DNA of 64,000 nucleotides from a virus (IMGVR_UViG_3300032304_001269:10067-74066); one strand, 5' to 3'. Positions 78 through 53,412 are shown, counted from the stretch's first letter. Notes: a model not told the origin generated them from the sequence alone. Numbers and translations are program-made.

Positions 78-665
78 ATGCTAGTACCAATGGTAGTTGA
101 ATCTACATCAAAAGGCGAACGGGCCTATGACATCTACAGCCGTTTGCTTAAAGAGCGTATTATTATGTTGAATGGACCGGTGGAAGATCACATGGCCAAT
201 GTTGTAGTTGCCCAATTGCTGTTCTTAGAGAGCGAGAATCCAGACAAAGATATAAATTTGTTTATCAATTCGCCAGGCGGTGTTATCACAGCAGGCATGG
301 CCATCTACGATACCATGCAGTTTATCAAGTGCGATGTGACCACTTATGTTATGGGACAGGCCTGCTCCATGGGCAGCTTTTTAGCACAAGCAGGTGCCAA
401 AGGCAAACGATACATGTTGCCCTATGCTAGACACATGATCCATCAGCCCAGCGGCGGTGCTCGTGGTATGCAGAGCGATATCGAAATCCAGTACAAAGAA
501 ATCACTAAGATGAAAACAATCTTAACTGAACTCTATGTCAAACACAACTCTGCAGGCAAGACATATCAAGACTTTGAACGTGATATGGATCGTGATACAT
601 TCATGAGTGCAGAAGAAGCACTGGCCTACGGTCTAGTAGATAAAATAATTGAGAAACGACCATGA
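78..665 (+). CDS. clpP: ATP-dependent Clp protease proteolytic subunit ClpP
   Basis: 195 aa. ClpP catalytic-triad context is present: GQACSMGS (Ser), MIHQPSGG (His) and DRD. An AAAGGA RBS lies upstream. Confidence 0.9.
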
Positions 666-6379: not shown

Positions 6380-7426
6380 ATGCATTGTCCAAGACTAGAC
6401 CACTTTGCAAAAATTTTACCCAACGATAATATAAAAAATCAAACTGTGGTAATGAATTGTTGTGTTATGACTAATGCACCTCTATTCGACAGTTACGACG
6501 AAATGATGAGCAGTCAATGGTTATCAACCACTAAAAAATTATTGAAATATGGTCGATGGCCTAACGAATGTGTTAGATGTAAAGAACAAGAAGAGCTAGG
6601 CTTAAAAAGTGATAGATTGCAATGGATCGATTATCATAAAGATGCTCTCGTAGACCACGGTTCTGATTATCTAACGGTATCCATGATGGTAGATAATATT
6701 TGTAACACAGCCTGCCAATTTTGCGATCCTTATATCAGCTCAAAAATTGCTTCACTTCAAAAATTTCCATTAAAAATTCGACAGATTGGTCCTTACGAAG
6801 AAAAACTACCTGTACACAGAATCACTCAAATAGACCTAGAAGGAGGAGAACCTTCTAACAGTAAAAATGTTAAACAACTGTTAACCAATTTACCGCAACG
6901 AGTAAACACTGTAAAAATTTACACAAATGCAAGATCTTTTTTATACGAACTTGTACCTGTTGCAGAAAGAGGTATTAAAGTTCAAATCAGCATATCGTTA
7001 GACGGAGTCGGGCCAGTACAGGAATATGTTAGATGGCCCACCCAATGGAGTGAATTTTGTGAAACTATTGGAAAATACAAAGACCTGCAGGTTAGATTCC
7101 CGGATACAGTTGTTTTGTCTTTTAAAACCACAATCTGTGCTTTAAATCTCTTTGATCTTCCAAATATTATTGATTTTGCTGAAAAACAAAATATTAGTCA
7201 TTCTGTGTCTCAACTCGCATACCCCCGGGTATTACAAATTTCTGCAACAAATAGTTATACAGCAACTGCCAAGCAACGATTGATAAAAAGTCAGTATGAA
7301 TTGTGCCAACAATTCGCTCTGGGAACAGCCACTCAAAAAAAAGAAAATCAGCAAGAAATTGACAAATTCATCGATCAACAAGACACGCTACGTAAAATTT
7401 CAATCAAAGATTATATCGTTAACTGA
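6380..7426 (+). CDS. radical SAM enzyme
   Basis: 348 aa. CNTACQFC is a CxxxCxxC [4Fe-4S]/SAM cluster motif, and a downstream IDLEGGEPS (GGE) motif is also present. No C-terminal Cys-rich SPASM-like region. Confidence 0.65.
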   Translation: MHCPRLDHFAKILPNDNIKNQTVVMNCCVMTNAPLFDSYDEMMSSQWLSTTKKLLKYGRWPNECVRCKEQEELGLKSDRLQWIDYHKDALVDHGSDYLTVSMMVDNICNTACQFCDPYISSKIASLQKFPLKIRQIGPYEEKLPVHRITQIDLEGGEPSNSKNVKQLLTNLPQRVNTVKIYTNARSFLYELVPVAERGIKVQISISLDGVGPVQEYVRWPTQWSEFCETIGKYKDLQVRFPDTVVLSFKTTICALNLFDLPNIIDFAEKQNISHSVSQLAYPRVLQISATNSYTATAKQRLIKSQYELCQQFALGTATQKKENQQEIDKFIDQQDTLRKISIKDYIVN

Positions 7427-7462
7427 TGTTTTAATTAATAAATATGATTATTAGGAACCAAC

Positions 7463-10953: not shown

Positions 10954-12630
10954 ATGGATAGATATAAAGATTTAGAACTATTAGTAAAACAATTCAGGCG
11001 AGAATTACCCAGTGACGCAAAATACACTACAAGACTCGAAGAAGAATTAGAATTAATTAGAGATCAAAATTTTTCAAAACACTTCTTACGTGTTAGAGAA
11101 ATATTAGATCTCACAACAGACATACCACATATCACGAGAGGTTCAGCAGGATCTAGTTTGGTGTGCTGGCTTATGGGAATCAGTGATCTTGATCCTGTGG
11201 CAGAAAACATTCCCATTGCACGTTTTATGAATCCCAAACGTGACGACTTACCTGACATTGATTTAGATTTCCCGCACTGGCAACAGGCCACAGTGATGAA
11301 TCGCATATTCAAACGCTGGCCTGGACAAAGTGCTAGAGTTTCTAATTATGTCATGTACAAAGAAAAAAGCGCCAAGAGAGAAGCTGCCAAGAGACTAGGC
11401 GCTAAAGGTACACTCAAGCGTGGATTTGAATTCAGCCAGGTGTTACCGCAAGAAGAGATAGCGGAGGCCGAACGAGTTACTGCCAAGCTCATGGGCAAGA
11501 AACGCTGTATTTCAAAACACTGTGGTGGTATATTGATCTTTGATCGTGCTGTGCCTAAAAGCTTGATCAACGGTGACAATCAGATCCTATTAGACAAGTA
11601 TGAAACTGAAGATCTTGAACACTTCAAGATAGACATCTTGGCCAATCGTGGACTTAGCCAACTGTGGGAAATAGATCAGCGCCCACTAACAGACTATCCG
11701 GAACTGGATGACGCAACCAGTGAACTGCTAGCTAGAGGTGATGTGTTGGGAGTTACCCAAGGCGAATCGCCTGCTATGAAACGCTTGTTTAGAGCACTAA
11801 AAGTCAAGAGCAAAAGCGACTGTACTCTAGCCACAGCACTGATTCGTCCGGTGGCCACACAGGGTCGACGAAAGGCCAGCGCCTTTCAAGACTGGAGTGC
11901 AGACACTATACAACAGGACACAGTGGTGTTTGAGGATGATGCCATTACCATGATTGCTGACATACTAGAATGTGACATGTACACCGCCGACATGTGGCGC
12001 AGAGCGTTTGCCAAACGTAATGAAGAAAAAATCTACGAATTCATGCAGTTGATTGGAGACCATCCCAAGCGTGATCGTGTGTTGGCTTCTTTGAGAGAAC
12101 TCAGTCATTTTGGTCTTTGTCGTGCTCATGCTACTAACTTGGGTAGATTGATATGGGCGTTGGCCTATCACAAGGCACATAATCCTGAGAAGTTCTGGAA
12201 GGCCTGTCTAAAACACTGTGAAGGCAGTTACAGCAAATGGGTATACTGGCAAGAAGCCAAACTGGCTGGTGCTGTTCCAGCGCCACTGGAAGGCGGTGAG
12301 TGTGCTGAGTTGGCCCGCACCGGTCGATGGAGTAGCGGTAGTTTTATTCCGGCATGTACTGAGATTCGACGTCCTGGCGAAGTTGAATTTCTTGGACTAG
12401 TGGCAAACTATCGTGTATTCAAAAGCGGTCCTAAAGACTATATAACCTTTGCCACACTAGGCACTGGTAATGGTCGTTATCTAGATGTTATGTTGCCACA
12501 TGCTATTAGTTTCGCAGATCAACCAATCTTATGGGGCAAGGGTCGATTAGACTATACAAACAGCTCAGAATGTGTTAAAGTATATAAGAGTAAGAAATTA
12601 CATCTCAAAGACATAGAGCATATCACATAA
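10954..12630 (+). CDS. DnaE-family (Pol III alpha-like) polymerase catalytic core, truncated (no PHP domain)
   Basis: ITRGSAGSSLVCWLMGISDLDP ... ARFMNPKRDDLPDIDLDF closely parallels the DnaE palm motif GRGSAAGSLV...FERFLNPERVSMPDFDVDF. Only 558 aa. Confidence 0.7.
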   Translation: MDRYKDLELLVKQFRRELPSDAKYTTRLEEELELIRDQNFSKHFLRVREILDLTTDIPHITRGSAGSSLVCWLMGISDLDPVAENIPIARFMNPKRDDLPDIDLDFPHWQQATVMNRIFKRWPGQSARVSNYVMYKEKSAKREAAKRLGAKGTLKRGFEFSQVLPQEEIAEAERVTAKLMGKKRCISKHCGGILIFDRAVPKSLINGDNQILLDKYETEDLEHFKIDILANRGLSQLWEIDQRPLTDYPELDDATSELLARGDVLGVTQGESPAMKRLFRALKVKSKSDCTLATALIRPVATQGRRKASAFQDWSADTIQQDTVVFEDDAITMIADILECDMYTADMWRRAFAKRNEEKIYEFMQLIGDHPKRDRVLASLRELSHFGLCRAHATNLGRLIWALAYHKAHNPEKFWKACLKHCEGSYSKWVYWQEAKLAGAVPAPLEGGECAELARTGRWSSGSFIPACTEIRRPGEVEFLGLVANYRVFKSGPKDYITFATLGTGNGRYLDVMLPHAISFADQPILWGKGRLDYTNSSECVKVYKSKKLHLKDIEHIT

Positions 12631-14949: not shown

Positions 14950-15903
14950 TTATAAAGAGATTTTCTCATGATCGTCCTCCTTGGTCTTCCATAAGCTATA
15001 ACCAACTCCACCTGCCAACAATCCAAAAGTTAAACCTAAGGTAAGCAGGGCAGGCAATTTAATACCGATCATCATTAACACAATCTTGACACCAATCAAA
15101 ACTAATATTAATGCTAAGGCATATTTGAGATAGTGGAATCTATGTATCATGGCAGCTAGAGCAAAATATAAGGCTCGTAGTCCTAAGATAGCAAAGATGT
15201 TTGATGTATAGACTATAAACGGGTCTTGCGTAATGGCTAGTATGGCAGGTACACTATCCACAGCAAATATTATGTCTGCGAAGTTAATCAATACTAGAGC
15301 CACGAACAACGGAGTAAACCATCTTACGCCATTCTCCTTGAACCAGAAGTCATGACCTCTGTATTCTTCGCTGATATTCATTTTACCTTGCATCCATTTG
15401 TACAATGAGTTATTCTCAAAATCCGGTCCATCTTCATCTTTGGTCCATAACATCTTGACCCCAGTGACGATTAAGAAGGCTCCGAAGAACCAGAGTACCC
15501 ATTGCCATTCTGATACTACTGCGGCACCGAATCCGATGAACACAGCTCGTAGCACAAGAGCCATTAAGATACCCCAGACTAAAACACGATATTGATAGAT
15601 TCTAGGTATTCCCAAGAATGCAAAAATCAGTGCGAAAACAAACACATTATCTATGCTTAATGATTTCTCAACCAAGAATCCTGTGTAGTAGAGTAAAGCA
15701 TCTTCTGCTCCACGCATCCACCAGACACCTAGGCCAAACAGCAGGGCCACAGCAATATAGAAAGCACTTAACCACAGGCTTTCCTTTATGCCAATTTCAT
15801 GATCTGTTTTATTGAGAACGCCCAGGTCGAATGCCATGAGCGCAATAACGATTACGAAAAACGTAATCCAAGGCAGTACAGCCGCCGATAACAACATTTC
15901 CAT
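14950..15903 (-). CDS. terC: TerC-family integral membrane protein
   Basis: 317 aa, multi-pass membrane protein. Contains the TerC-type SIDNVFVFALIF motif. Confidence 0.75.
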   Translation of the reverse strand: MEMLLSAAVLPWITFFVIVIALMAFDLGVLNKTDHEIGIKESLWLSAFYIAVALLFGLGVWWMRGAEDALLYYTGFLVEKSLSIDNVFVFALIFAFLGIPRIYQYRVLVWGILMALVLRAVFIGFGAAVVSEWQWVLWFFGAFLIVTGVKMLWTKDEDGPDFENNSLYKWMQGKMNISEEYRGHDFWFKENGVRWFTPLFVALVLINFADIIFAVDSVPAILAITQDPFIVYTSNIFAILGLRALYFALAAMIHRFHYLKYALALILVLIGVKIVLMMIGIKLPALLTLGLTFGLLAGGVGYSLWKTKEDDHEKISL

Positions 15904-16009: not shown

Positions 16010-16591
16010 TTAGTCTACGATGATATTGTAAATTTCTTTCCAGTTCTTAACTACAGGATAGTCGCATTCGTGATGCATATTGTGTCCGTGTTCGACAAGA
16101 ATGCTTTTTAATCCTATAGCATGTCCAACATCTGCGTTCTGCGGCTTGTCTTCAATCCACCACATACCACTATTGCGATATGGTTCCAGTGCAGAATCTT
16201 TGTCTGCTCCTGTGTCTAAACAAATAACACTTTCAATTGCATTACCAAAGATCTTGCGTAGATTCATTTCACGCAGCTTCTGTGCGTTTTTGTCTAGGCT
16301 TAGACTAGTGATAACACGGAATTCGTATGCGTGTTCTTCGTGCAGACGTTTAACATAGTAAGCGGCATCACGCAGCGCAGGAAGAAAACCAATAGCTGCG
16401 GATTCATTGAATGCCTTAACGACCTTCTTGGCGTCCTTTTCTTCTAGCTCATTATAGTGGTGATGTAGATAATAGCTGTTCTTATGGTTTACGGTAAGTG
16501 TGTATCCACGCTCTTGCATCCAGACTGAAAATGCCCATTCCCAATCTAATAATACGCCGTCGGCGTCTGTGAGTATAAGTTTGTTTTTCAT
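16010..16591 (-). CDS. HAD-superfamily hydrolase (5'(3')-deoxyribonucleotidase-like)
   Basis: N-terminal DADGVLLDW matches HAD motif I (DxDG), with downstream motif II/III candidates. Confidence 0.55.
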   Translation of the reverse strand: MKNKLILTDADGVLLDWEWAFSVWMQERGYTLTVNHKNSYYLHHHYNELEEKDAKKVVKAFNESAAIGFLPALRDAAYYVKRLHEEHAYEFRVITSLSLDKNAQKLREMNLRKIFGNAIESVICLDTGADKDSALEPYRNSGMWWIEDKPQNADVGHAIGLKSILVEHGHNMHHECDYPVVKNWKEIYNIIVD

Positions 16592-16640
16592 ACCATATTA
16601 TAGCATTATTTTGAACAGTTGTCAACCGGATAAGTAAACA

Positions 16641-17342
16641 ATGAACATAATAATCTATACCCTAGTGATGGTTCAAATCACTATAGCCTGTGTAACGCTG
16701 TATTTGCACAGAAGTCAAACACACCGAGCTGTACAATTTCATCCAGTGGTCAATCATATTATGCGAGCCTGGCTTTGGCTGACCACGGGCATGGTTACTC
16801 GTCAATGGGTGGCCATACATCGTAAACATCATCAACGTTCGGATCAAGAGGGCGATCCACATAGCCCGCAGATCTACGGCATTTGGCGTGTGCTATTTGG
16901 CGGAGCATTTCTCTATCATGCAGCCAGTAAAGACACAGCCATGATTGAGTCCTTGAGCAAGGACTGCCCCAATGATTGGATCGAACGCAACCTTTACTCC
17001 GCACACAGTCGCTCAGGTATTCTTTTAATGTTGGTCATAGACCTTTTGCTCTTTGGACCGTGGGGACTGCTCGTGTGGGGTATTCAAATGATCTGGATCC
17101 CATTCTGGGCAGCAGGTGTGATTAATGGACTTAGTCATTGGTGGGGATATCGCAACACCGATACCAAAGACACCAGCCGTAACATCATTCCGTGGGCAGT
17201 ATGGATTGGAGGGGAAGAACTGCACAACAATCATCATGCCGATGGTGCCAATGCCAAGTTCAGCCAGAAGTGGTGGGAGTTTGACATTGGCTGGGCCTAC
17301 ATTTCTATACTAAGATTTTTTAGATTAGCAACAGTTAGATAA
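16641..17342 (+). CDS. membrane di-iron His-box desaturase/hydroxylase family protein
   Basis: His boxes HRSQTH, HRKHH and HNNHH, with hydrophobic segments. Size is similar to CrtW and small fatty-acid desaturases. Confidence 0.55.
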   Translation: MNIIIYTLVMVQITIACVTLYLHRSQTHRAVQFHPVVNHIMRAWLWLTTGMVTRQWVAIHRKHHQRSDQEGDPHSPQIYGIWRVLFGGAFLYHAASKDTAMIESLSKDCPNDWIERNLYSAHSRSGILLMLVIDLLLFGPWGLLVWGIQMIWIPFWAAGVINGLSHWWGYRNTDTKDTSRNIIPWAVWIGGEELHNNHHADGANAKFSQKWWEFDIGWAYISILRFFRLATVR

Positions 17343-35545: not shown

Positions 35546-35749
35546 ATGGTAACAGGAAAAGTAAAATGGTTTAACGACGCCAAGGGTTTTGGCTTTATTA
35601 CGCCGGACGATGGTGGCGCAGACTTATTTGCTCACTTTTCACAGATTAGTTCGAGTGGCTTCAAAAGCCTACAAGAAGGACAGAGTGTAAGGTTTGAAGT
35701 AACTCAGGGTCAAAAAGGACAACAGGCTAGTAACATTCAGCCTGCCTAA
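35546..35749 (+). CDS. cspA: cold-shock protein (CspA family)
   Basis: [15 protein letters not shown] and DLFAHFS RNP motifs; 67 aa. Confidence 0.85.
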
Positions 35750-36067
35750 GGAATTGTTGTAATCCCTTCAAAGCGAAGGCGTTCAAGACGCCGGTTCGAA
35801 TCCGGCCACCTCCACCTAAGTGTATTAGAAGTATATTTAGGTGGGGGTGCTCTGGTAATCGATTGAGCGAGATAGTGGCGACGGCAACACGGTAGGCGAT
35901 GACCGTAAATCAAGCAAAACTCGTAAATGCAAACGCAGATACATTTGACTTCAGCGCAATGAGCTTCACTGGTAACACCGTTCGCGGTGCTGCTAATGAC
36001 AGCAGATTTGCTCTAGCTGCCTAAAAAACAGCGGTCCGAGGTAGTTATACCTTGTAATCCAAAATAG
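35750..36067 (+). ncRNA. ssrA: tmRNA (ssrA), permuted two-piece gene. The acceptor piece ends at CC near 35816. The coding piece starts at GGGGGTG near 35843.
   Basis: T-arm GCCGG-TTCGAAT-CCGGC at 35790-35806, followed by the 3' acceptor strand CACCTCC, a discriminator A and CC. Downstream, GGGGGTG (35843-35849) pairs with that strand and gives the G3:U70 alanine identity pair. A tag reading frame at 35992-36024 encodes ANDSRFALAA and ends in a stop. A terminator hairpin follows. Confidence 0.7.
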
Positions 36068-36095
36068 CAGAGCCCGCTTCGGCGGGTTTCTTTTT
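36068..36095 (+). terminator. rho-independent terminator after the tmRNA
   Basis: GCCCGC-TTCG-GCGGG followed by a T-run. Confidence 0.6.
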
Positions 36096-36119
36096 GGGAT
36101 TAATTCAAGAAATAAAAGG

Positions 36120-42465: not shown

Positions 42466-43953
42466 ATGAGAATACATACAAGCGACAAATTCATTGCCTG
42501 GTCAGCTCTACTCAGCGGATTAACAGTTTCTGCGGTAGCCATCTATTATAGTGTGGCTGGACTAGTGGCCATATTCTCTGCGGCAGTTATCCCAATTATT
42601 GTAATGGGTGTGGCCTTGGAAATCAGCAAGCTGGCCGGCACTGTATGGCTCAAACAAAATTGGACTCGAGCACCGTTTTTTATTCGAGCATACCTGCTTG
42701 CAGCTATTGCCATATTAATGCTGATCACCAGTATGGGTATCTTTGGCTTTCTAAGCAAAGCACACAGTGATCAAAGTCTTGTGTCGGGTGATGTGCAGAG
42801 CAGGATCGCAATCTACGACGAAAAGATTAAGACAGCAAAGGACAATATCGATGCTAACCGCAAGGCGCTTAAACAGATGGATGAGGCTGTGGACCAAGTT
42901 ATGGGCCGAAGCAGTGATGAAAAAGGTGCCGACAAGGCTGTTGGACTCCGAAGAGCACAGCAAAAAGAAAGAGTCCGCCTTCAATCTGAAATCTCAGCCG
43001 AACAGAAAACTGTTGCCGCCCTTAGCGAAGAACGTGCGCCAATTGCAGCTGAAGTCAGAAAAGTGGAGGCAGAAGTTGGGCCTATAAAATATATTGCCAA
43101 TTTTATCTACGGTGATAACCCGGACGCTAATGTATTAGAAAAAGCAGTGACTTGGGTGATCATTATCATCGTTGTGGTATTTGATCCTTTGGCTGTTATT
43201 CTATTATTAGCCAGTCAATATTCTTTCCAATGGTTCCGAAAACAGGAAGAAGAAGAAAATCTAAAGATTGTCGAAATAGAAACAGCTCCTGAGGAACCAG
43301 AGGCAGATCCTGAAGTTGAGACTGAACCCAAACAACTAGGACCTGCAGCCACAGCATTGTGGCCATTTCCTTCAGCACACGAATTACAAACACACACAGA
43401 AGAAGTTCCAAGCGAAACACCGTCGACTGCACTAGGAGGTGATATAACAGCGCCGGAGGAAAAGCCAGCAGAAGTGGTAGAGGATATACCACTCGAACAG
43501 TGGAACAAAATGATCGAAGAAGCCGAAAAGGCTGTAGAACAAGAACGTGAAATTGAAGACAAGGACATAATTAACTCTGCACCTGAAACAGAAAAACAAG
43601 CCATGGCAGCATGGAAACATGAAAACCCAGAGTCTAGTCTGAAATTTCAACGGCGTCTATTAGATAAAGGCATCATCGATCATTTGCCTTGGCAGGATTA
43701 TATCAAACCACAGGCAGACTTCGTAGACGATGCAGCCGTAGAAGCTAAGAAGTGGGCTGATGAAAATCCTGATACCGAGGAATCAGAAAAAGCCAAAGAG
43801 TGGGCCAAAGAACAGAGTGCAGATGCAGATCTATCTTGGATGGAAAAGGATACTCAAGGCAATCAAGTCAAAAAGGTCAAAGAAATATATCAACAGAACG
43901 CTGAACAAAATGAAAAGACTCTATGGCAACGCATTCAAGGCGTGAAGAAGTGA
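42466..43953 (+). CDS. membrane-anchored coiled-coil protein with acidic C-terminal region
   Basis: 495 aa. Several N-terminal TM helices, a long coiled coil, and a Glu/Pro-rich tail. Confidence 0.5.
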   Translation: MRIHTSDKFIAWSALLSGLTVSAVAIYYSVAGLVAIFSAAVIPIIVMGVALEISKLAGTVWLKQNWTRAPFFIRAYLLAAIAILMLITSMGIFGFLSKAHSDQSLVSGDVQSRIAIYDEKIKTAKDNIDANRKALKQMDEAVDQVMGRSSDEKGADKAVGLRRAQQKERVRLQSEISAEQKTVAALSEERAPIAAEVRKVEAEVGPIKYIANFIYGDNPDANVLEKAVTWVIIIIVVVFDPLAVILLLASQYSFQWFRKQEEEENLKIVEIETAPEEPEADPEVETEPKQLGPAATALWPFPSAHELQTHTEEVPSETPSTALGGDITAPEEKPAEVVEDIPLEQWNKMIEEAEKAVEQEREIEDKDIINSAPETEKQAMAAWKHENPESSLKFQRRLLDKGIIDHLPWQDYIKPQADFVDDAAVEAKKWADENPDTEESEKAKEWAKEQSADADLSWMEKDTQGNQVKKVKEIYQQNAEQNEKTLWQRIQGVKK

Positions 43954-44339
43954 CAGCTAAGATTTTAGTTATAACCCCGCCTGACGACACAGTATTACAA
44001 GGTTTGAGAATTACCCATGTAAATCTCACCAACGAACAAACTGCCATAGTGTCTCAGGCAATGTTAAAAAATAATCTGTCTCATAACATCATTAATTATG
44101 TATGGCATATCGGCAATCCTATATCCTGGCTATTGAAAATGAAATCTCAGAGCGATCTTATTATATTCAATGCAGACTCTGATTTAGAAAGTGACATGAT
44201 CACCGGTTATCTAGCAGCAGATCCAAGATCTTATTATTTTGGCACACTGCGAGATTTACATGTGGCTAACGATCGTGTTATACTTAACAGCGATGAAATT
44301 TTAAACCTATTGGAGACTATTGCAAAATATCATGTTTAA
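43923..44339 (+). CDS. hypothetical protein
   Basis: 138 aa. Confidence 0.4.
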
Positions 44340-44568
44340 ACCCAACAAACTTATAGGTACTGGTGTTATAGTTAAAGAAAACGAAAACATCAACCAAGCC
44401 TTGCGCAGATTAAAGAAAAAAGTAGAAGAGTCAGGTGTTCTTGATACACTAAGACAAAAAGAATTCTACGAAAAACCAACCACTGAACGTAAACGTAAAA
44501 AAGGTGCGGCTAAGGCACGTTGGCGAAAGAAACTTCGTGAAAACGAATTACCTAAAAAACAATTTTAA
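44332..44568 (+). CDS. rpsU: 30S ribosomal protein S21
   Basis: [26 protein letters not shown] ... [15 protein letters not shown] ... AKARWRKK matches the S21 consensus VxVxENE..ALRRFKR..GvL..R.fYEKP..RKRK. First ATG used; the track starts at TTG 44320. Confidence 0.75.
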
Positions 44569-44594
44569 GAAAGAATCATGTGCTAACAGATATT

Positions 44595-45161
44595 ATGATC
44601 GACTTGGAGACCTTAGATGTTCTCCCTACAGCAACAATTTTAACCATCGGCGCTGTTAAATTTGACCCATTTGGCGATGACGTAAACGAAAAGAAATGTG
44701 AGAAATTTTATGTCCGTGTTGATGTTGACAGTTGTGATAGGATTGGTGCTACGGTTAGCCAGGCAACGTTAGATTGGTGGGCTAACCAAAGCCAGGATGC
44801 TCAGAACGAAGCATTTGATCCCGCAAACAGAATCTCCATTGAAGAAGCAATCACACAACTTTATAAGTTCTGCTGGGGTGCTAAACGTGTATGGAGTCAC
44901 GGTGCAGGTTTTGACGTGACCATCTTAGAATGGTATTTCCGTAAAATTGGTAAAGCTATTCCTTGGCAATTTTGGCAAGTTCGCGACACTCGTACTATCT
45001 TCGATATCGGAATCAATCCCAACCGCCCTCCGGTATTAAAACATCATGCACTCGAAGATGCTTGGAACCAAGCAGTAGGTGTACAAAATGTTTACAAAGC
45101 TCTGCGTATCAGTACAATGAGCAACGGCGAGTATATCGCACCATTTGCAAATCAAAGGTAA
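44595..45161 (+). CDS. DnaQ-like (DEDDh) 3'-5' exonuclease
   Basis: Exo I motif MIDLETLD near the N-terminus and HHALEDAWNQA Exo III (H-x4-D). The track start is GTG 44580; the ATG at 44595 was used. Confidence 0.6.
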   Translation: MIDLETLDVLPTATILTIGAVKFDPFGDDVNEKKCEKFYVRVDVDSCDRIGATVSQATLDWWANQSQDAQNEAFDPANRISIEEAITQLYKFCWGAKRVWSHGAGFDVTILEWYFRKIGKAIPWQFWQVRDTRTIFDIGINPNRPPVLKHHALEDAWNQAVGVQNVYKALRISTMSNGEYIAPFANQR

Positions 45162-45164
45162 TAT

Positions 45165-45449
45165 ATGGATAGTCAAACTAAAGAAGTAATGGATATTCTG
45201 CAAGAAGAATGTGCAGAAGTAATACAAGCAGTGAGTAAAATCAGTAGATTTGGATTGAATAATTTCAAACCCGGTAAGCCTAAAACTAACCGTGAACATC
45301 TTGAAGAAGAATTAGGCGATATGATGGCTATGATTGACATCTTGCACAGCATGGACATTGTCAGCTACACCAACATCGAACGTGCTCAAGCTGCTAAAAT
45401 TGAAAAACTTAAGAAATGGTCAAATATTCAAAATCTAGAGAATATCTGA
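45165..45449 (+). CDS. mazG: MazG-like nucleotide pyrophosphohydrolase (small all-alpha NTP-PPase)
   Basis: EECAEV ... EELGDMMAMIDIL has the EExxE/D metal-binding pattern of the MazG fold. Confidence 0.6.
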   Translation: MDSQTKEVMDILQEECAEVIQAVSKISRFGLNNFKPGKPKTNREHLEEELGDMMAMIDILHSMDIVSYTNIERAQAAKIEKLKKWSNIQNLENI

Positions 45450-45533
45450 TATAAATAAAATTGTGAATTGCACCGTCAAGGGCAGTTTATAGAGCATAGT
45501 GCTCAAATAGATCTTACTTTAAAGGAGATAGAC

Positions 45534-47432
45534 ATGTCTAAGATCATCGGTATTGACCTCGGCACCACCAACTCATGCGTGGCTGTTATCGAGAACGGAA
45601 AATCCAAAGTTATTGAGAATTCAGAAGGTGCAAGAACCACACCCTCAATTGTGGCTTATACCCCAGAAGAAATTATTGTCGGCGCTTCGGCCAAACGACA
45701 GGCAGTAACAAATCCTAAAAACACAATTTATGCCAGCAAGCGATTGATTGGTCGCAAGTTTAAAGAACAGGCTGTGCAGAAAGACCTTGATCTCATGCCC
45801 TATGAGATCTACGAAAATTCTAACGGTGATGCTTGGGTTCGAGCTCAAGGCAAAGAACTAGCACCTCCACAGATTTCAGCAGAAGTTCTACGTAAAATGA
45901 AGAAGACCGCAGAGGACTATCTGGGACATGAAGTGACTCAAGCAGTTATCACTGTGCCTGCATACTTCAATGACAGTCAACGTCAAGCAACCAAAGACGC
46001 AGGTAAGATTGCCGGCCTGGAAGTTCTACGTATTATCAATGAGCCGACAGCGGCTGCACTGGCCTATGGTGTAGACAAAGAAGACAAGAAGGATCGAAAG
46101 ATTGCTGTATATGACCTAGGCGGTGGTACGTTTGACGTAAGCATTATTGAAATTGCTAATGTGGATGGAGAGAAACAGATCGAAGTGTTATCTACCAATG
46201 GTGATACATTTCTAGGTGGAGAAGATTTCGATCAACGTATCATGGATCATCTCTGCGATGAATTCAAGAAAGAACAGGGTGTTGATCTTACCAAAGATAT
46301 GTTGGCCCTGCAACGACTAAAAGATGCAGCAGAAAAAGCAAAGATAGAATTATCTAGTAACACCAGTACAGATGTTAATCTACCTTATATCACTGCGGAC
46401 GCTTCTGGTCCGCGTCATATGAACATCAAGATCAGTCGTGCTAAGTTAGAGTCGTTGGTAGCAGAACTGGTCAATAGAAGTTTAGAGCCATGCCGTACAG
46501 CTCTCAAAGACGCAGGCGTGAGTGCCTCAGACATCGACGAAGTTATCTTAGTTGGCGGTCAAACACGCATGCCTAAGGTGCAAGAAGAAGTTGAGAAACT
46601 GTTTGGCAAAGCACCACGTAGAGATGTCAATCCAGATGAAGCAGTAGCAGTCGGTGCTGCTATCCAAGGTGCTGTATTGGGTGGTGATCGCAAAGACGTT
46701 CTATTATTAGATGTAACACCTTTGAGTTTAGGTATCGAGACTATGGGCGGTGTGATGTCAAAGATCATCCAAAAGAACACAACGATTCCAACTAAAGGAC
46801 AGCAGACGTTCTCCACAGCAGAAGACAATCAACCAGCTGTGGATATCAAAGTATTCCAAGGTGAACGTGAGCTTGTACAATATAACAAACTGTTAGGCGA
46901 ATTCAAACTAGACGGCATTGCTCCTGCACGTAGAGGACAACCACAGGTTGAGGTTACTTTTGACATTGATGCCAACGGTATCATGCACATCTCAGCCAAA
47001 GACAAGGCCACAGGCAAAGAAAACAAGATCACTATCAAGTCCAACAGTGGACTATCAGAAGCTGAAATTCAAGCTATGATCAAAGACGCAGAGTTGAATG
47101 CAGAAGCAGATAAGAAAGCTCGTACATTGATCGATACAAGAAACTCAGCAGAAGCGCAGGTACACGAAGTCAAAAAAGATCTTGAAGAATTCCGTGCAGA
47201 GCTCACAGAAGCAGAAGTCACAGAAATCGAAACTGTGATCACCGCAGTCGAAACAGCAGCCAAAGGCGATGACGCTGAAAAGATCACCGAAGAGCTCAAC
47301 AAGGTTTTCCCAGCAATGAAAACATTGTTGGAGAAAAAGCAGGCCAAGGAACAGGCAGCACAAGCACAGCCTACTCAGCCTGAAGCAGATGATGTAGTTG
47401 ATGCCAGCTTCACAGAGAAAAAGGCAGACTAA
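45534..47432 (+). CDS. dnaK: molecular chaperone DnaK (Hsp70)
   Basis: N-terminal [14 protein letters not shown], then DLGGGTFD and [22 protein letters not shown] before the ATG at 45534. The track ORF extends upstream to 45468. Confidence 0.9.
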
Positions 47433-47488
47433 TCATAACTGAGGTACTTTCGAGGCCTCAATTGTTCTTACTTTAAAAGGAGACTATT

Positions 47489-47932
47489 ATGAACAATCAA
47501 TTAACAAAATTAGATGCTCTAAGCAGAGCACTCATTGGGTTCGACACTATGTTTGACCAAATGGAACGCCGGTATGCTAACAGCGTACCCAACAACTATC
47601 CACCACACAATATTCTCAAGACTGGTGACAATCTGTATGAGATTCAAATTGCTGTGACAGGATTTGAGAAATCGGAAATTTCTGTTACTGTGGAATCCAA
47701 TGTTCTTACAGTTGCAGGTGAAGGAGCAGAATCTATTCGCCACGAACAACCGGAAATCGTTTACCTACACAGAGGTCTTGCTACTCGCGATTTCGTCAAA
47801 GAATTTCCCCTGGCAGAACACATCGAGGTAGTAGGTGCAGAAATCCGTAACGGAATGCTAATTGTTAAATTAATACGCAATGTTCCTGAAAGCGCCAAGC
47901 CCAAGGTCATTGACATCGTTGACATTAAATAG
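47489..47932 (+). CDS. small heat-shock protein (Hsp20/IbpA family)
   Basis: Alpha-crystallin domain YEIQIAVTGFEKSEISV ... AEIRNGMLIVKL. Confidence 0.8.
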   Translation: MNNQLTKLDALSRALIGFDTMFDQMERRYANSVPNNYPPHNILKTGDNLYEIQIAVTGFEKSEISVTVESNVLTVAGEGAESIRHEQPEIVYLHRGLATRDFVKEFPLAEHIEVVGAEIRNGMLIVKLIRNVPESAKPKVIDIVDIK

Positions 47933-47937
47933 TAAAA

Positions 47938-47966
47938 TATAAGGGAGGGTAACCTCCCTTATTAAA
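47938..47966 (+). terminator. probable terminator hairpin
   Basis: AAGGGAGG-GTAA-CCTCCCTT followed by an A/T run. Confidence 0.4.
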
Positions 47967-47986
47967 TATTACATCATAGGAATTAT

Positions 47987-48286
47987 ATGTCAACAGATAC
48001 CGCAGTAGAAGAATCAGTAGTTGTAGCACTTAAGCCACCTGGTTTATGGAAGGTGATTTTTCTCAATGATGATTCCACTCCGATGGAATTGGTTATAGAA
48101 CTGCTCACAGGAATTTTCAAGCACACAGTATCATCCGCTAAAGAAGTCACCCTGGAAATACATGAAACTGGCAGCGGCGTGGCCGGTGTTTACAGTTTTG
48201 AAATAGCCGAACAAAAAGGCATGGAAGCCACTGCCGTGGCTAGACAGAATGGTTCACCTTTACGTGTACAAGTGGACCCGGAATGA
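47987..48286 (+). CDS. clpS: Clp protease adaptor ClpS
   Basis: WKVIFLNDDSTPMELVIELL and the HETGSGVAGVYSFEIAEQK ClpS core. Confidence 0.8.
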   Translation: MSTDTAVEESVVVALKPPGLWKVIFLNDDSTPMELVIELLTGIFKHTVSSAKEVTLEIHETGSGVAGVYSFEIAEQKGMEATAVARQNGSPLRVQVDPE

Positions 48287-48828
48287 GTCTACGAGAAATT
48301 ACCAAAGACCTCCATCATGAGGCAGAAACCACAACATTTGCCAAGATGTTGCTCAGTGGCAAAATTGAAAAACAAGACTACAGAAACTATCTGTACAATC
48401 TACTTGCAGTATACGATCCAATTGAATGGTACTGCAAGCGGCAGGGCTTTCTTGACACTATGCCGGATCTTCCAAGACTAAAGTCTATATATGCAGACTT
48501 CCAAGAATTAGACGATGGTACCTATTGTTATCTCACTCCTGCTACATTAGAATATCAAGCATACTTGCATAGACTAGGCAACGATCCAGAACGTAAAACA
48601 CAAATTAAGGCTCATCTATACTGCCGTCACATGGGCGACTTATTCGGCGGCCAAATTATTAAAAAACAAGTAGCACATATATCAAGTGGAAAGTTCTACG
48701 ACTTTGAAAATGGCGATGCTATGAAAGGTGCTATCCGTGCAACGCTAACAGATGATCTAGGCGACGAAGCTCGAGTGGCCTTTGAGTTTGCTATTAAAAT
48801 GATGCGAGACTTATATCTTGGAGAGTAA
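48283..48828 (+). CDS. heme oxygenase
   Basis: AHLYCRHMGDLFGGQIIKK matches the HO signature AHAYTRYLGDLSGGQ. N-terminal TKDLHHEAE is the proximal His region. Confidence 0.75.
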   Translation: MSLREITKDLHHEAETTTFAKMLLSGKIEKQDYRNYLYNLLAVYDPIEWYCKRQGFLDTMPDLPRLKSIYADFQELDDGTYCYLTPATLEYQAYLHRLGNDPERKTQIKAHLYCRHMGDLFGGQIIKKQVAHISSGKFYDFENGDAMKGAIRATLTDDLGDEARVAFEFAIKMMRDLYLGE

Positions 48829-49501
48829 CGTTTGGGACACCCTGATAGAAATACAATCTCTATTTGAGAAGTCGTTCGACCGCACAGGTACTGAAGTGTT
48901 CGAGCCGGGGATGGATCGGTTTAATCAACCGGGGTGGGTTAATAGAGTTTGGACCAGTAACGATTATCGTAGAGCTCATATCGATGTAGTCGATGCCCGA
49001 TCCACAAAGGGACTCTGGATGATGCATTGCTGTATTTTCCCACATATCCATAACCCGGCACCTATTTACGGATTTGATGTTATTGCAGGTAAGAATAAGA
49101 TCACTGGTTGTTTTCATGATTTCAGTCCAGCTGGCGACATTGAACATTCTCTCATCGATTGGTTTGCTGCCGAAACCCAAAAATTGCAATGGAACAAAAC
49201 ACGGAAACTACCTGAGTGGGCAGAGCGTATTTTTACAGGATCTATGATTGCTGCAGGAAATGTCAGCGATCCGGGAGAGCTAGAACAGATTATGAATCTA
49301 GTAAAACTAACCACAGAAGTATATCTCAAGCATGTGGGTGATACTAATCGTACAGCTATGAATACTACTGACAATCAAAATTACTACGCACAAAATCAGA
49401 AGCAAAACCCGCATACACCTAAGGTAATGGTTAGTTTAGGACTTTCAGAGGACGATGTACAGCATTTTATACAAGAATGCCTGTTCCCAGAAATACGCTA
49501 A
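48818..49501 (+). CDS. ferredoxin-dependent bilin reductase (PcyA/PebS/PcyX family)
   Basis: Size and layout fit this family: an ordered Asp/His-containing core (RRAHIDVVDARSTKGLWMMHCCIFPH), and it lies immediately downstream of heme oxygenase. The start is a TTG that overlaps the HO stop; the next in-frame ATG is at 48911. Confidence 0.6.
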   Translation: MESNVWDTLIEIQSLFEKSFDRTGTEVFEPGMDRFNQPGWVNRVWTSNDYRRAHIDVVDARSTKGLWMMHCCIFPHIHNPAPIYGFDVIAGKNKITGCFHDFSPAGDIEHSLIDWFAAETQKLQWNKTRKLPEWAERIFTGSMIAAGNVSDPGELEQIMNLVKLTTEVYLKHVGDTNRTAMNTTDNQNYYAQNQKQNPHTPKVMVSLGLSEDDVQHFIQECLFPEIR

Positions 49502-51306: not shown

Positions 51307-53412
51307 ATGAAATTATCTAAATCAGCCATGGTGGCGCTGGCTTTCCTGTTCACCTCAGTAGCAAATGCATTTGAGTCCGGCACAGACTATAATAGTGCAA
51401 ACATGTCTTATACCGCTAATAGCACTATCAGTCAAAATATAGTATTTGATAATGCGATGCAAAGTGGTGGTACACTGACTTTTTCAGTAGAAGCACACGC
51501 AGGTGGTGGTAGAAATCTACAACACGATACCGGTCAACTCAAACTAGAATACTACAACGGCAGCACTCTACTGGGTTCAAGTACTACCAGTTATGCCACA
51601 GGTAATCTACTACAAATGAATGCCTGGAGTTCAGGTCCAGGTGACAACTCAGAACCTTGGAGTACACTATCATTGACTTCTACTGATTGTGGTACTGCAG
51701 GCAGTTGTGCCAGTGTCACTCATGTCAAAGTTATCATGATTGGTACAGATACATCATGGTGGGCAGGTAATTATGGTCCACAATGGCGTGTACCAACAGT
51801 AACATTCACACCAACAGGTGGATCGGCGGGCAGCAACATATTGTATAATCCAGAGTTTGGTCTTGATCCAACAGGTGTATTTGCACAAGGTTGGACCAGT
51901 TCTTCCAGTTGGGGTGCTTGCGGTACAACCAGTGGATCTGTAATGTGTACAACCACAGCAGCCGGCGTCACAGCAAACATGAGCGGTGGCGGCTATGATG
52001 CCAATGGTGGTACTACAGCAGCAACACCAGGTGGATATACAGGTACATTGTCAGTTACATCATTTAGCGGCAGTGGCGGCGGATCAGGAAGTGGATCACC
52101 TACTGTAACAGGAACTACAACGACCAATCAAACTACCACCAGCAACAGCAGAGGCTCAAGTACAACCGCTACCAGCACAGTTGATGGTACGGCTTCAGAA
52201 ACAGATGTAGTGACCAGAGGAACCTCAGTCACTACAGTAGTTGAAACTAGAAATCGTGGTGATCAAACAGCAAAAACTCTAACTGTTAATCAGGTGTTCA
52301 CTACCACTGTGACCACACCGGTGACCACTACAACCACTACAGTTACACCTTACACCACAACTACCACAGTCACAACACCAGTAACAGTTACTACAGTCAC
52401 AACACCAGTAACAGTTACTACATACAGTGACGGAACATCAACAACTACAAACGGTACAGCCACTACCAGTACCAGTACCAGCGATGAAGTTGTTACCAGC
52501 GTTGTAGTAGGTACTACCACAACAGTTGCGGCTGTTACTGTGGATGAGGTGCTGTCCAGTGCCACAACCACAGCATATCAGACCAGAATTGATCAGTTTG
52601 ATAGACTAGCAGAAGCTAACATACGAGAAAATTCTATGTTAGTCAGCGATCCATTAATTCGTCATAGAGCCCACGACGGTGAAATTAAATTAATAGGTGC
52701 AAATGTCAACGAACGCACTGTGTTTGATATCACAGCATCGAGATCAGGTACCGATACTGTTGACGGATATCAATCAACTGCTAATCGGTACAGTTTAGGT
52801 ATAGCACATTTGGTAAAAACTGATTTAATGATCGGCGGACAGTTTAGTCAAATTAACCTAAACATGGATGGAAATAACAGCACAGGATCTTTGTATAAAA
52901 ATGCTGTAAATTTATACGCACTATGGACTAGAAACGATTGGTTAGTCAAAGGCGATGTTGGGCATGCAAAAAATAAATTTAATACCACTCACGCACTTCC
53001 TGATTTAAATTTATCAAATAGTGCCAGTGCCGCAGGCGAAGACTTATGGGCACAGGTAAGACTTTATACCCCTGCTAAGAAAGGCGTTAGATTGTTTGCT
53101 GGTGCTAGAAAAGAACAAAATCGTCGAGACTCGGCGACTGATTCAGGATCAGCACTATCAGCAGTTGACTATGCCGCAGTTAATAAGATAACTGATACCA
53201 CCGAAGCAGGTATACGTGTTGATCATTATGTCAACGACAAGATGAGTGTGTATGCAGAATACAGCCAAAACAGTAGACAGTTAGAAACTGGCAAAGCAGG
53301 CCTGAGCTTTATTTCTAAAAAGAATGCTACTATTCAAATAGGCACTATTCAACAAAGACAAAATGATCTACGAAACAGTGGCGCGATGTTAGAGTTGAAA
53401 ATTTTATTTTAA
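51307..53412 (+). CDS. secreted Thr/Val-rich repeat protein with C-terminal beta-barrel-like (autotransporter-like) region
   Basis: Signal peptide, a long (T/V)-rich PVTVTT repeat tract, and a C-terminal amphipathic-strand domain ending in LELKILF with a terminal Phe. Confidence 0.4.
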   Translation: MKLSKSAMVALAFLFTSVANAFESGTDYNSANMSYTANSTISQNIVFDNAMQSGGTLTFSVEAHAGGGRNLQHDTGQLKLEYYNGSTLLGSSTTSYATGNLLQMNAWSSGPGDNSEPWSTLSLTSTDCGTAGSCASVTHVKVIMIGTDTSWWAGNYGPQWRVPTVTFTPTGGSAGSNILYNPEFGLDPTGVFAQGWTSSSSWGACGTTSGSVMCTTTAAGVTANMSGGGYDANGGTTAATPGGYTGTLSVTSFSGSGGGSGSGSPTVTGTTTTNQTTTSNSRGSSTTATSTVDGTASETDVVTRGTSVTTVVETRNRGDQTAKTLTVNQVFTTTVTTPVTTTTTTVTPYTTTTTVTTPVTVTTVTTPVTVTTYSDGTSTTTNGTATTSTSTSDEVVTSVVVGTTTTVAAVTVDEVLSSATTTAYQTRIDQFDRLAEANIRENSMLVSDPLIRHRAHDGEIKLIGANVNERTVFDITASRSGTDTVDGYQSTANRYSLGIAHLVKTDLMIGGQFSQINLNMDGNNSTGSLYKNAVNLYALWTRNDWLVKGDVGHAKNKFNTTHALPDLNLSNSASAAGEDLWAQVRLYTPAKKGVRLFAGARKEQNRRDSATDSGSALSAVDYAAVNKITDTTEAGIRVDHYVNDKMSVYAEYSQNSRQLETGKAGLSFISKKNATIQIGTIQQRQNDLRNSGAMLELKILF
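52367..52420. repeat. 27-bp perfect tandem direct repeat (x2) inside the Thr-rich gene
   Basis: CAGTCACAACACCAGTAACAGTTACTA occurs twice in a row, encoding VTTPVTVTT repeats. Confidence 0.8.

Follow-up and report, generated by a model that had tools for sequence, protein, structure and literature searches.

Proteostasis genes in large phages

Phage-encoded proteostasis genes are already known as a category, with ClpP, ClpS, Hsp20, DnaJ, ClpA, ClpX and ClpB catalogued in cultured jumbo phages (PMC7824862, PMC6102473). Here we examine an uncultivated freshwater phage through a 64-kb window of its genome (IMGVR_UViG_3300032304_001269:10067-74066; "the window" denotes this whole stretch), in which genes for DnaK, Hsp20 (a small heat-shock protein) and ClpS form a block at 45534-48286 and a clpP gene lies near the start. 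The cultured jumbo phages Atu_ph07 (Agrobacterium), the PA5oct group (Pseudomonas), Phosso (Sinorhizobium) and SCTP-2 (Salicola) likewise carry ClpS, ClpP, Hsp20 and other proteostasis genes, which have been read as recruiting the ClpAP or Hsp70 machinery of the host (survey PMC7824862). The composition differs in that the cultured phages have DnaJ, ClpA, ClpB or ClpX with no DnaK found, whereas the window phage is reversed, having DnaK with no J-protein, GrpE or ClpA found. ClpS of the window is 31–43% identical to the ClpS of cultured jumbo phages and the loci share no synteny. The reading we favour, with a probability of about 0.6, is that the block is a vertically inherited proteostasis cassette of a clade of large uncultivated jumbo phages (genomes of at least ~350 kb), dependent on host partner proteins and gated by hairpins in its leaders.

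Full-length DnaK of bacterial type is also carried by other large uncultivated phages, the DnaK megaphages (Lak, LR75xxxx) and the moraphages. Using tblastn, we found DnaK in Lak and other huge phages at 50–60% identity to that of the window. Moraphage DnaK nests in Flavobacteriales and is accompanied by DnaJ (PMC12619734), whereas the DnaK of the window's clade sits beside that of Burkholderiales with no DnaJ found, and the sequences indicate that the DnaKs of megaphages and moraphages and that of the window's clade are independent acquisitions.

In freshwater phages encoding the ribosomal protein bS21, Hsp20 (127 genomes) and Clp proteases (50 and 47) were found no more than ten genes away from bS21, and control of the proteostasis network was proposed (PMC9723584). 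The window likewise links these functions, with bS21 three genes upstream of dnaK, although the clades of that study have Bacteroidetes hosts and carry bS21 in the structural-gene region, and DnaK is not mentioned. A hemO-pcyX(-alaS) tetrapyrrole cassette is described from aquatic phages (PMC11480375; pmoC-phage preprint, bioRxiv 10.1101/2020.02.13.942896), and the window shares both habitat and auxiliary metabolic genes with these reports, having hemO-pcyX right after clpS and a gene for 5-aminolevulinate synthase (ALAS) beside clpP, but their main texts make no mention of DnaK, ClpS or ClpP. Pelagibacter phage Mosig has hemO-pcyX, and none of the window's chaperone genes was found in it. No literature on a DnaK-IbpA-ClpS phage cassette or on ROSE-like phage elements was found in the incomplete library searched. 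What is new is a matter of degree: the orphan composition of the set, the scale and age of its conservation, and thermometer-like leaders common to the chaperone genes.

Integrity of the four proteostasis genes

Domain calls were made with Pfam profiles, NCBIfam equivalog and subfamily cut-offs, and Rfam gathering scores. The dnaK gene (45534-47432, + strand) encodes a canonical full-length Hsp70 of 632 aa that covers positions 1-595 of the 599 in the Pfam HSP70 profile (857.6 bits), exceeds two NCBIfam equivalog cut-offs (NF001413, 983 vs 648; TIGR02350, 905.6 vs 822.55) and has a complete architecture of nucleotide-binding domain, linker, substrate-binding β domain and lid. Its ATG at 45534 aligns with Met1 of E. 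coli DnaK and has an AAGGAG Shine-Dalgarno (SD) sequence 6 nt upstream; a TTG at 45468 was rejected as the start, being an artefact of the ORF listing. Identity to E. coli DnaK is 66%. Residues D8, K70, E171, D194, T199, D201, P143, R151 and D393 and the linker VLLL, which have catalytic and allosteric roles, are all identical to E. coli. Most of the J-domain and GrpE contact positions are kept in the same alignment (R167, N170, T173, G32, K55, R56 and others), and the residues of the substrate-binding pocket and lid are conserved too.

The dnaK gene is followed after a 56-nt spacer by hsp20 (47489-47932, +), whose product is a 147-aa IbpA/IbpB-like small heat-shock protein (Pfam HSP20, 53 bits), 43.8% identical to E. 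coli IbpA over its whole length, including the C-terminal V-I-D-I (I-x-I type). The best NCBIfam models, IbpA (110 bits vs a cut-off of 212) and IbpB (100 vs 207), are both missed, and we class the protein from its sequence as IbpA-like, not as an equivalog. After a further 54 nt comes clpS (47987-48286, +), contiguous with the other two and overlapping the start of hemO by 4 nt at its stop codon. It encodes a 99-aa homologue of the ClpA adaptor and N-degron recognin (Pfam ClpS, 88 bits) that is 40% identical to E. coli ClpS and has E. coli ClpS structures as its top matches in the Protein Data Bank (E=1e-18). The score falls below the NCBIfam equivalog cut-offs (81.6 vs 149), and the protein carries an N-terminal extension of 18 residues; pocket residues N34, D35, D36, T38, M40 and H66 are kept with M62 replaced by T, as are E79 and K84, the contacts to the ClpA N-domain.

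The clpP gene (78-665, +) lies ~45 kb upstream and is therefore not part of this row. Its product is a cell-type ClpP proteolytic subunit of 195 aa without a propeptide (Pfam CLP_protease, 272 bits), 65% identical to E. coli ClpP over the full length, N-terminal gating loop included, with an intact Ser-His-Asp triad (S97/H122/D173). It passes the NCBIfam subfamily model NF001368 (317.5 vs 249) and falls slightly below the cut-off of TIGR00493 (294 vs 308.6). ClpP-related head-maturation proteases are frequent in phages, which would allow this gene to be an S14 ClpP-like capsid (prohead) maturation protease unrelated to the chaperone block, and the NCBIfam head-maturation model does give a partial match of 103 bits. 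That match stays under its cut-off of 120 while the cellular subfamily model is passed, however, the identity to the E. coli enzyme includes the gating loop, and clpP adjoins a cupin-like ORF and the ALAS gene with no portal or capsid genes, making a prohead protease very improbable.

Across 69–80 orthologues per gene, one DnaK orthologue has an in-frame stop and otherwise none is pseudogenised. With synonymous sites saturated (pS ~0.73), the ratio dN/dS is ~0.07 for DnaK, ~0.16 for Hsp20 and ~0.19 for ClpS. A first-pass annotation of the window had reported a full-length DnaK, Hsp20 and ClpS in a row with ClpP at 78..665, none of them apparently truncated or pseudogenised; all four are where it placed them, matching their profiles at full length. 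By these measures DnaK, Hsp20, ClpS and ClpP are functional-looking phage genes.

Phage origin and ancestry of the cassette

A DnaK 76–99% identical to that of the window is encoded on at least 587 viral contigs of IMG/VR, which range up to 383 kb in length, and a ClpP 76–96% identical to the window's on at least 566. Conservation and synteny were counted in the best 80 DnaK loci of the IMG/VR scan and, for ClpP, in the best 80 ClpP loci. The gene order kept is bS21-exoRNase-(MazG)-DnaK-Hsp20-ClpS-HemO-PcyX, with Hsp20 and ClpS downstream of DnaK in 70–71 of the 80 loci and HemO and PcyX in 58–61. On the upstream side bS21 and the exoribonuclease are syntenic in 61–65 loci and MazG in 33, and genes as far as a cell-wall hydrolase are kept in 40–65. 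Among the matches listed, three IMG/VR contigs carry both clpP and dnaK at a spacing of ~45 kb, which for the 353-kb contig (IMGVR_UViG_3300044640_001495) holds if that contig is circular. An exact-sequence look-up using the window DnaK gave no match, and a DNA-level search of GenBank phages returned only distant dnaK matches, most of them host contaminants. The view that phage-borne DnaK is rare holds for GenBank phage records, where the real cases are megaphages, and fails for metagenomes, where one lineage accounts for the contigs above.

Since DnaK is 66–76% identical to proteobacterial DnaK and many GenBank "phage" DnaK records are host contamination, the region could in principle be host DNA mis-assembled or mis-binned into a phage contig, or a recent passenger gene without a phage function. 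Against this stand the number of viral contigs with a close DnaK, with phage synteny on both sides, and the absence of the phage neighbour genes beside dnaK in all 80 best bacterial loci. The window itself has phage hallmarks, including tail, tail-spike-like, endolysin, ribonucleotide reductase, radical-SAM and DnaE-like polymerase genes. GC content is phage-like, being 42–45% in the four proteostasis genes and 42% in the window against a bacterial dnaK median of 60%. The low dN/dS at saturated synonymous sites, the monophyly of the phage DnaKs (below) and the phage-type ATAAATA box that stands before dnaK, where a sigma-32 CTTGAAA promoter would be expected of host DNA, point the same way. 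Together the many viral contigs, the synteny, the selection and the GC content exclude host contamination for practical purposes; we regard host DNA or a passenger gene as hardly credible, and the phage-borne status assumed by the first-pass annotation stands.

A neighbour-joining (NJ) tree of 146 distinct DnaK sequences, including 67 phage DnaKs, was built with 60 bootstrap replicates. Bacterial sequences came from one representative genome per species, taken from the matches listed in the scan. The 67 phage DnaKs were monophyletic in 60/60 bootstraps, with either a betaproteobacterial metagenome-assembled genome or a larger Burkholderiales group as sister. Among the matches listed, the nearest bacterial DnaKs are those of Burkholderiales (Limnohabitans, Polynucleobacter, Rhodoferax, Paracidovorax and others) at 70–76% identity. 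Whether the genes were acquired together had been raised in the first-pass annotation, and for DnaK the tree fits a single old capture followed by vertical descent; that the tree is NJ only and its bacterial sample consists of the matches listed weighs against this. The evidence indicates that dnaK was taken once from a proteobacterial operon of the grpE-dnaK-dnaJ type, without its neighbours, and has stayed under strong purifying selection beside an IbpA-type small heat-shock protein and ClpS. The most likely hosts of the clade are Betaproteobacteria of the order Burkholderiales, a placement that is also supported by the Betaproteobacteria-type tmRNA found in the window and its relatives.

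Missing partners and the role of the set

As queries we took E. coli K-12 DnaJ, GrpE, ClpA, ClpB, ClpX, Lon and GroES from the annotated genome; the DNA searched, translated in six frames, comprised the window together with the 80 DnaK and 80 ClpP loci (~2.6 Mb). No DnaJ, GrpE, ClpA or Lon match was found in this space, and the J-domain or GrpE partner that the first-pass annotation suggested looking for elsewhere in the genome did not appear. Applied to 80 bacterial dnaK loci, the identical procedure recovered grpE in 79 and dnaJ in 75, showing that the method works. ClpX lies upstream of dnaK in four loci (L033, L037, L039, L069), and GroES is present in five: L019 (11857-12234), L022 (3013-3408), L033, L034 and L037. 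In L019 and L022 groES is directly downstream of dnaK, and a gap of ~2 kb there leaves room for GroEL. In four more distant loci (L236, L237, L239, L240) ClpX, Hsp20 and ClpS are packed together ~3.5 kb upstream of ClpP, and within range no DnaK occurs. Since relatives add ClpX or GroES, or rearrange ClpX-Hsp20-ClpS-ClpP, the locus acts as a plastic proteostasis island.

Partners were not found and yet the residues that would contact them are kept, and from this we infer that the phage supplements and depends on host machines without replacing them. The most economical reading is that it would add DnaK, a holdase, an adaptor and a peptidase to the DnaJ/GrpE/ClpB and ClpA/ClpX of the host. Phage DnaK would use host DnaJ and GrpE (and ClpB), the small heat-shock protein would hold aggregating proteins for DnaK, phage ClpS would dock on host ClpA, and phage ClpP would pair with host ClpX or ClpA, some relatives having a phage ClpX. 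The net effect would be added capacity to hold, refold and degrade misfolded or aggregated protein while virion proteins are mass-produced. Two points weigh against dependence on the host: the window covers about one fifth of a ~350-kb genome, and partner genes could sit elsewhere in it; and half of the ClpP docking-pocket residues differ, from which no conclusion was drawn. The first-pass annotation had suggested that the phage reprograms host protein folding and N-degron degradation during infection rather than relying on host chaperones. A role in folding and degradation during infection is the natural reading of the gene set, while the proposed independence is not borne out, given the missing DnaJ, GrpE and ClpA and the kept contacts. 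Reprogramming of N-degrons by ClpS is possible, as is ClpS acting as an inhibitor or redirector of ClpA.

The last of these can be put more sharply. By binding host ClpA, phage ClpS may act as a brake that stops ClpAP from degrading ssrA-tagged proteins, other substrates and ClpA itself, protecting phage proteins or re-routing tmRNA-tagged products to ClpXP. ClpS is reported to inhibit the degradation of ssrA-tagged substrates specifically. No phage ClpA was found in the loci examined, ClpS keeps E79 and K84, the phage has a tmRNA with an ...ALAA tag, and in some relatives ClpX stands beside Hsp20-ClpS-ClpP, all of which would suit a brake; that ClpS alters the substrate specificity of ClpAP is stated where PMC6102473 cites Dougan et al. 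2002. A pure inhibitor, however, would need neither the N-degron pocket residues nor the 18-residue N-terminal extension, both of which are retained, and we consider the brake unlikely on balance, though the brake and delivery roles are compatible and not exclusive.

A similar question arises for DnaK, which could mainly be a regulator or decoy, titrating sigma-32 and so damping the host heat shock, or sequestering DnaJ and so disabling DnaJ-dependent defences. DnaK and DnaJ of E. coli are negative regulators of sigma-32. In every locus examined DnaK occurs without DnaJ or GrpE, its J-domain contact residues are kept, and both DnaJ-dependent anti-phage activity and a phage J-protein that stabilises sigma-32 have been reviewed (PMC12619734). 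A pure decoy would need no substrate pocket, lid or allosteric residues, and yet these are under strong purifying selection; the neighbouring IbpA-type holdase, joined in some relatives by GroES and ClpX, speaks for genuine handling of proteins. A decoy function therefore seems quite unlikely, and we retain supplementation of the host machines as the preferred role.

Shine-Dalgarno hairpins before the chaperone genes

Short ROSE-like RNA thermometers are defined as elements 5' of a heat-shock gene with two to four hairpins, the last of which holds the SD (PMC11182007), and by predicted folds and alignments the window leaders are built in this way. The dnaK leader begins with hairpins I (45462-45491, +) and II (45492-45504, +; GAGCA-UAG-UGCUC), with a minimum free energy (MFE) of -24.1 kcal/mol (z=-3.5); the middle pair of hairpin II is GC in 26 sequences, AU in 16 and broken in 1. 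A third, SD-sequestering hairpin follows at 45509-45530 (+; AUCUU-A-CU / AGGAGAU), which has a bulged A and is a ROSE-like variant. In the dnaK-hsp20 spacer a predicted hairpin at 47440-47460 (+; GAGGUAC-UUUCGAG-GCCUC), kept in relatives with changing stems, precedes the SD-sequestering hairpin of hsp20 at 47463-47485 (+; UCUU-A-CUU / AAGGAGA), again with a bulged A. The leader common to dnaK and hsp20 can be written CUU(A/G)CUU - short loop - AAGGAG - 6–9 nt - AUG, in which the predicted partner of the SD is the CUU-R-CUU strand, whose purine bulges out. Upstream of the SD hairpin come one or two further hairpins that are GC-rich, and the element also occurs before groES in relatives.

As a regular expression the motif has 152 matches in ~2.7 Mb of phage DNA, of which 76 are at dnaK, 72 at hsp20, 2 at groES and 2 elsewhere. 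The two non-chaperone copies (L200, 12053-12085; L210, 4511-4542; CUUGCUC variant) precede a 168–176-aa protein of unknown family. MAFFT alignments of the leaders placed gaps at the ends and not in the loop, making them unusable for pair counts, so a gap-free subset was used for modelling and anchored counts for pairs. The resulting covariance model, R1, was trained on 28 gap-free leader copies with the window dnaK copy left out of the training set. In the window it finds the hsp20 copy at 34.6 bits (E=8e-8) and the dnaK copy at 29.2 bits (E=4e-6), the next match, at a non-chaperone site, scoring 14.6 bits. In 1.7 Mb of phage loci it gives 138 matches, all on the gene strand and all at chaperone genes, and in 1.0 Mb of bacterial DNA two, one of which is the E. 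coli ibpB leader. The closing pair of the SD hairpin is AT in 44 and TA in 25 sequences, a count that 0 of 2000 shuffles reach, shuffles that ignore relatedness. A conserved SD-sequestering hairpin with a bulged purine before phage chaperone genes appears to be new.

The closest known elements are the short ROSE-like thermometers of E. coli ibpA/ibpB and of the Pseudomonas type (Rfam families ROSE_2, RF01832, and ROSE_3, RF02523), which like the phage elements lie in the 5' leader of small heat-shock genes. Both have two or three hairpins, the last pairing the SD with a U-rich/GCU strand that has one bulged purine, and both place an internal copy between the genes of a two-gene operon, ahead of ibpB in E. 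coli and of hsp20 in the phage. Between the E. coli ibpB leader, CUUACUCGCUU..AAGGAG, and the phage dnaK leaders of L038 and L058 there is hardly any difference, and MFE structures share the bulged-nucleotide architecture of ibpB. In contrast to the ibpA/ibpB thermometers, the phage elements also precede dnaK and groES and are located in a virus; in bacteria, dnaK and groES are not known to carry ROSE elements. Relatives with UUGCU or UCGCU, in which the SD hairpin shares its architecture with that of the window dnaK, reach 19.6 and 20.9 bits on Rfam ROSE_3 in matches spanning the whole model, and the genuine E. coli ibpA thermometer scores 20.8 bits on ROSE_3 and 100 bits on its own family. 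From the MFE structures and energies, phage SD hairpins have stabilities between -0.9 and -2.8 kcal/mol at 37 °C and between -4 and -6.4 kcal/mol at 15 °C, much weaker than ibpB at -5.1 at 37 °C; such low predicted stability would suit cold-to-temperate lakes.

Several observations weigh against a thermometer. The ROSE_3 scores of the relatives are about half of the gathering score of 43, and the R1 match to ibpB has E=5.1. The window leaders have no Rfam match at E<=10 and carry UUACU with a bulged A at both copies, not the U(U/C)GCU and bulged G of the ROSE signature. No locus mixes the two bulged bases, which are A in both leaders of 37 loci and G in both of 30, and each form belongs to a clade of its own. 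Six SD pairs do not vary and are therefore uninformative on structure. Finally, for the window dnaK ViennaRNA favours an alternative helix between leader and coding sequence (CDS), in which 45510-45516 is complementary to codons 2–4 at 45539-45545 (GAUCUUA/UAAGAUC). In the other clade both sides of this helix differ (UUGCUUA/UGAGCAA), with a Ser codon TCT changed to AGC, and analogous pairs are found for hsp20 (AUUGUUC/GAACAAU, UUGAUUC/GAAUCAA); other 7-bp helices with G-U pairs arose by chance in the same leader-CDS scan. The leader-CDS helix could be an additional helix closing the ribosome-binding site, or chance. As for the inverted repeats, CIRCE/HrcA and HAIR operators were rejected by eye, the arm and spacer lengths not being 9-N9-9.

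These observations leave room for the leaders to be something other than thermometers, such as constitutive attenuators of translation, elements governing mRNA stability, or the site where a trans-acting factor (a protein, a small RNA or bS21-modified ribosomes) binds to co-regulate the chaperones. The near invariance of the anti-SD segment and the SD fits a sequence-specific binding site too, the Ser codon switches between TCT and AGC together with the leader in the alternative pairing, the window variant departs from ROSE as just described, and a bS21 gene is close at hand. On the other side, two or three hairpins with the last occluding the SD and a single bulged purine make up the architecture of the ibpA/ibpB type (as defined in PMC11182007), the element is confined to heat-shock-type genes, and a melting switch would need marginal stabilities such as those predicted. 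We rate a non-thermometer function as a serious but rather unlikely alternative. The modelled leaders resemble ROSE-like ibpA/ibpB RNA thermometers, and in the mechanism we propose dnaK and hsp20 would each be translationally gated by a short ROSE-like hairpin occluding the SD, with chaperone output probably rising with temperature or under other helix-melting conditions. Going further, we tentatively suggest that the lineage may run its own RNA heat-shock regulon, in which the thermometer came with an ibpA-type gene and was then copied within the phage genome onto dnaK and groES; it would be tuned to less strength than its bacterial counterparts and take two clade-specific forms, with a bulged A or a bulged G. 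This is the more speculative part of the proposal.

Candidate promoters and transcription units

A promoter-like TATAAATA box with core ATAAATA lies upstream of dnaK (45450-45457, +), and the core is invariant before dnaK in 43 of 43 aligned relatives. The window has 14 copies of ATAAATA, 12 on the + (coding) strand and 10 in the 8.5% of the DNA that is non-coding; intergenic copies are 12–223 nt upstream of gene starts, and the DnaE-like polymerase, ribonucleotide reductase, a tail-spike-like gene, dnaK and others are preceded by one (+ strand positions 7438, 10667, 10922, 12977, 20879, 21888, 22762, 26401, 28447, 45451 and 51084). The 7-mer probably marks a class of promoters specific to the phage and similar to the T4 late TATAAATA. 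A T4-type late promoter as such was rejected, as the TATAAATA 8-mer is not over-represented (4 observed vs 3.8 expected). Since only the position and strand bias of the 7-mer is striking, we call the box promoter-like and assign it no timing. Bacterial dnaK genes have sigma-32-type CTTGAAA promoters; in the phage this promoter is gone, and the ATAAATA box and the structured leader have taken its place.

Toward clpS, a sigma-70-like promoter (TTGACA-17-TAAAAT; 47910-47938, +), with 11/12 consensus positions, overlaps the end of hsp20 in the window's subclade, and the strict form TTGAYA-N16-18-TANNNT is present in 23 of 61 distinct relatives. Next to it, a hairpin between hsp20 and clpS (47939-47962, no strand assigned; -17.1 kcal/mol, z=-3.2) is a candidate terminator or boundary of the dnaK-hsp20 unit. 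All 61 distinct relatives have a hairpin of -10 kcal/mol or below at this place, with differing stem sequences. With this hairpin and promoter between them, dnaK-hsp20 and clpS-hemO-pcyX look like separate units: dnaK and hsp20 would form one transcription unit, and clpS would belong to another, coupled to hemO-pcyX. Near-perfect sigma-70 promoters (TTGACA-17-TATAAT) were also seen by eye at ~16591-16641 and upstream of 57203, 62726 and 25703, including a divergent gene pair, which suggests a second promoter class dependent on the host polymerase.

Neighbouring genes and other features of the window

The genes for bS21, an Rv2179c-like 3'-5' exoribonuclease and MazG lie upstream of dnaK at 44320-45449 (+; Pfam, NCBIfam S21p). 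Downstream of clpS, hemO (48283-48828, +; Pfam Heme_oxygenase) and a pcyX-like bilin reductase gene (48818-49501, +; Pfam Fe_bilin_red) have overlapping stops and starts, and the best cultured match of PcyX is that of Pelagibacter phage Mosig (49.6%). The ALAS gene beside clpP (999-2210, −; TIGR01821, 568 bits) is kept in 46 of the 80 ClpP loci, and a 127-aa ORF also beside clpP (662-1045, +), with no Pfam match, in 49. As ALAS adjoins clpP and hemO-pcyX adjoins clpS, tetrapyrrole auxiliary metabolic genes are physically paired with both Clp genes.

A two-piece (permuted) tmRNA of the Betaproteobacteria type is located 10 kb upstream of dnaK (35714-36115, +), with a tag ending in ...FALAA. It scores 144 bits on Rfam RF01850 against a gathering score of 84 and 130 bits on RF04321, and ARAGORN also calls it. 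Permuted tmRNAs are present in 10 of 48 related loci, every tag ending in ALAA; besides the window, loci with such a tmRNA include L006, L012, L015, L023, L043, L053, L061, L063 and L067. In several relatives ARAGORN gives an unusually long tag, ANADTFDFSAMSFTGNTV..., which is conserved across phages with a variable C-terminal end.

A DnaE-like polymerase of the Pol III alpha type (558 aa; 10954-12630, +) has its best phage match, at 36%, in LR756508.1, a huge phage of 484 kb that also encodes DnaK. With the polymerase DnaE-like and this huge phage nearest, a T4-like or Kyanoviridae affiliation is argued against despite the Mosig-like PcyX. A 701-aa autotransporter beta-domain protein (51307-53412, +; Pfam PF03797, E=7e-10) has no PHROG match; such an outer-membrane-type domain is unusual in a phage gene. 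Host-like genes for a TerC membrane protein, a fatty-acid desaturase and a radical-SAM enzyme were also observed, as was a 495-aa acidic-tailed membrane protein, assigned to no family, that is present in 63 of the 80 loci (positions of the four: 14950-15903, −; 16641-17342, +; 6380-7426, +; 42466-43953, +).

Implications for the biology of the phage lineage

Chaperone and protease genes of large phages are usually treated as curiosities. Here they belong stably to the core of a phage lineage that is very abundant in the environment, and selection on them is strong. The phage supplies what would be the stoichiometric workhorses (DnaK, the small heat-shock protein and ClpP) and an adaptor (ClpS), not the catalytic partners, a composition that predicts which of the host's factors are indispensable to the phage. 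Taken together, the Betaproteobacteria-type tmRNA and the DnaK phylogeny yield the hypothesis that this uncultured group of jumbo phages infects freshwater Burkholderiales.

In phages, only two or three RNA thermometers were known (PMC11182007). Should the proposed regulon be real, phage chaperone supply would follow temperature or proteotoxic conditions without reference to host sigma-32; among ROSE-type thermometer families, the leaders would be the first reported from a virus as well as the first in control of an Hsp70. As thermometers they may also represent compact, weak thermosensors for 10–30 °C that are potentially useful as parts, and they would provide a naturally occurring example of a virus that uses RNA structure to make an auxiliary function depend on temperature.

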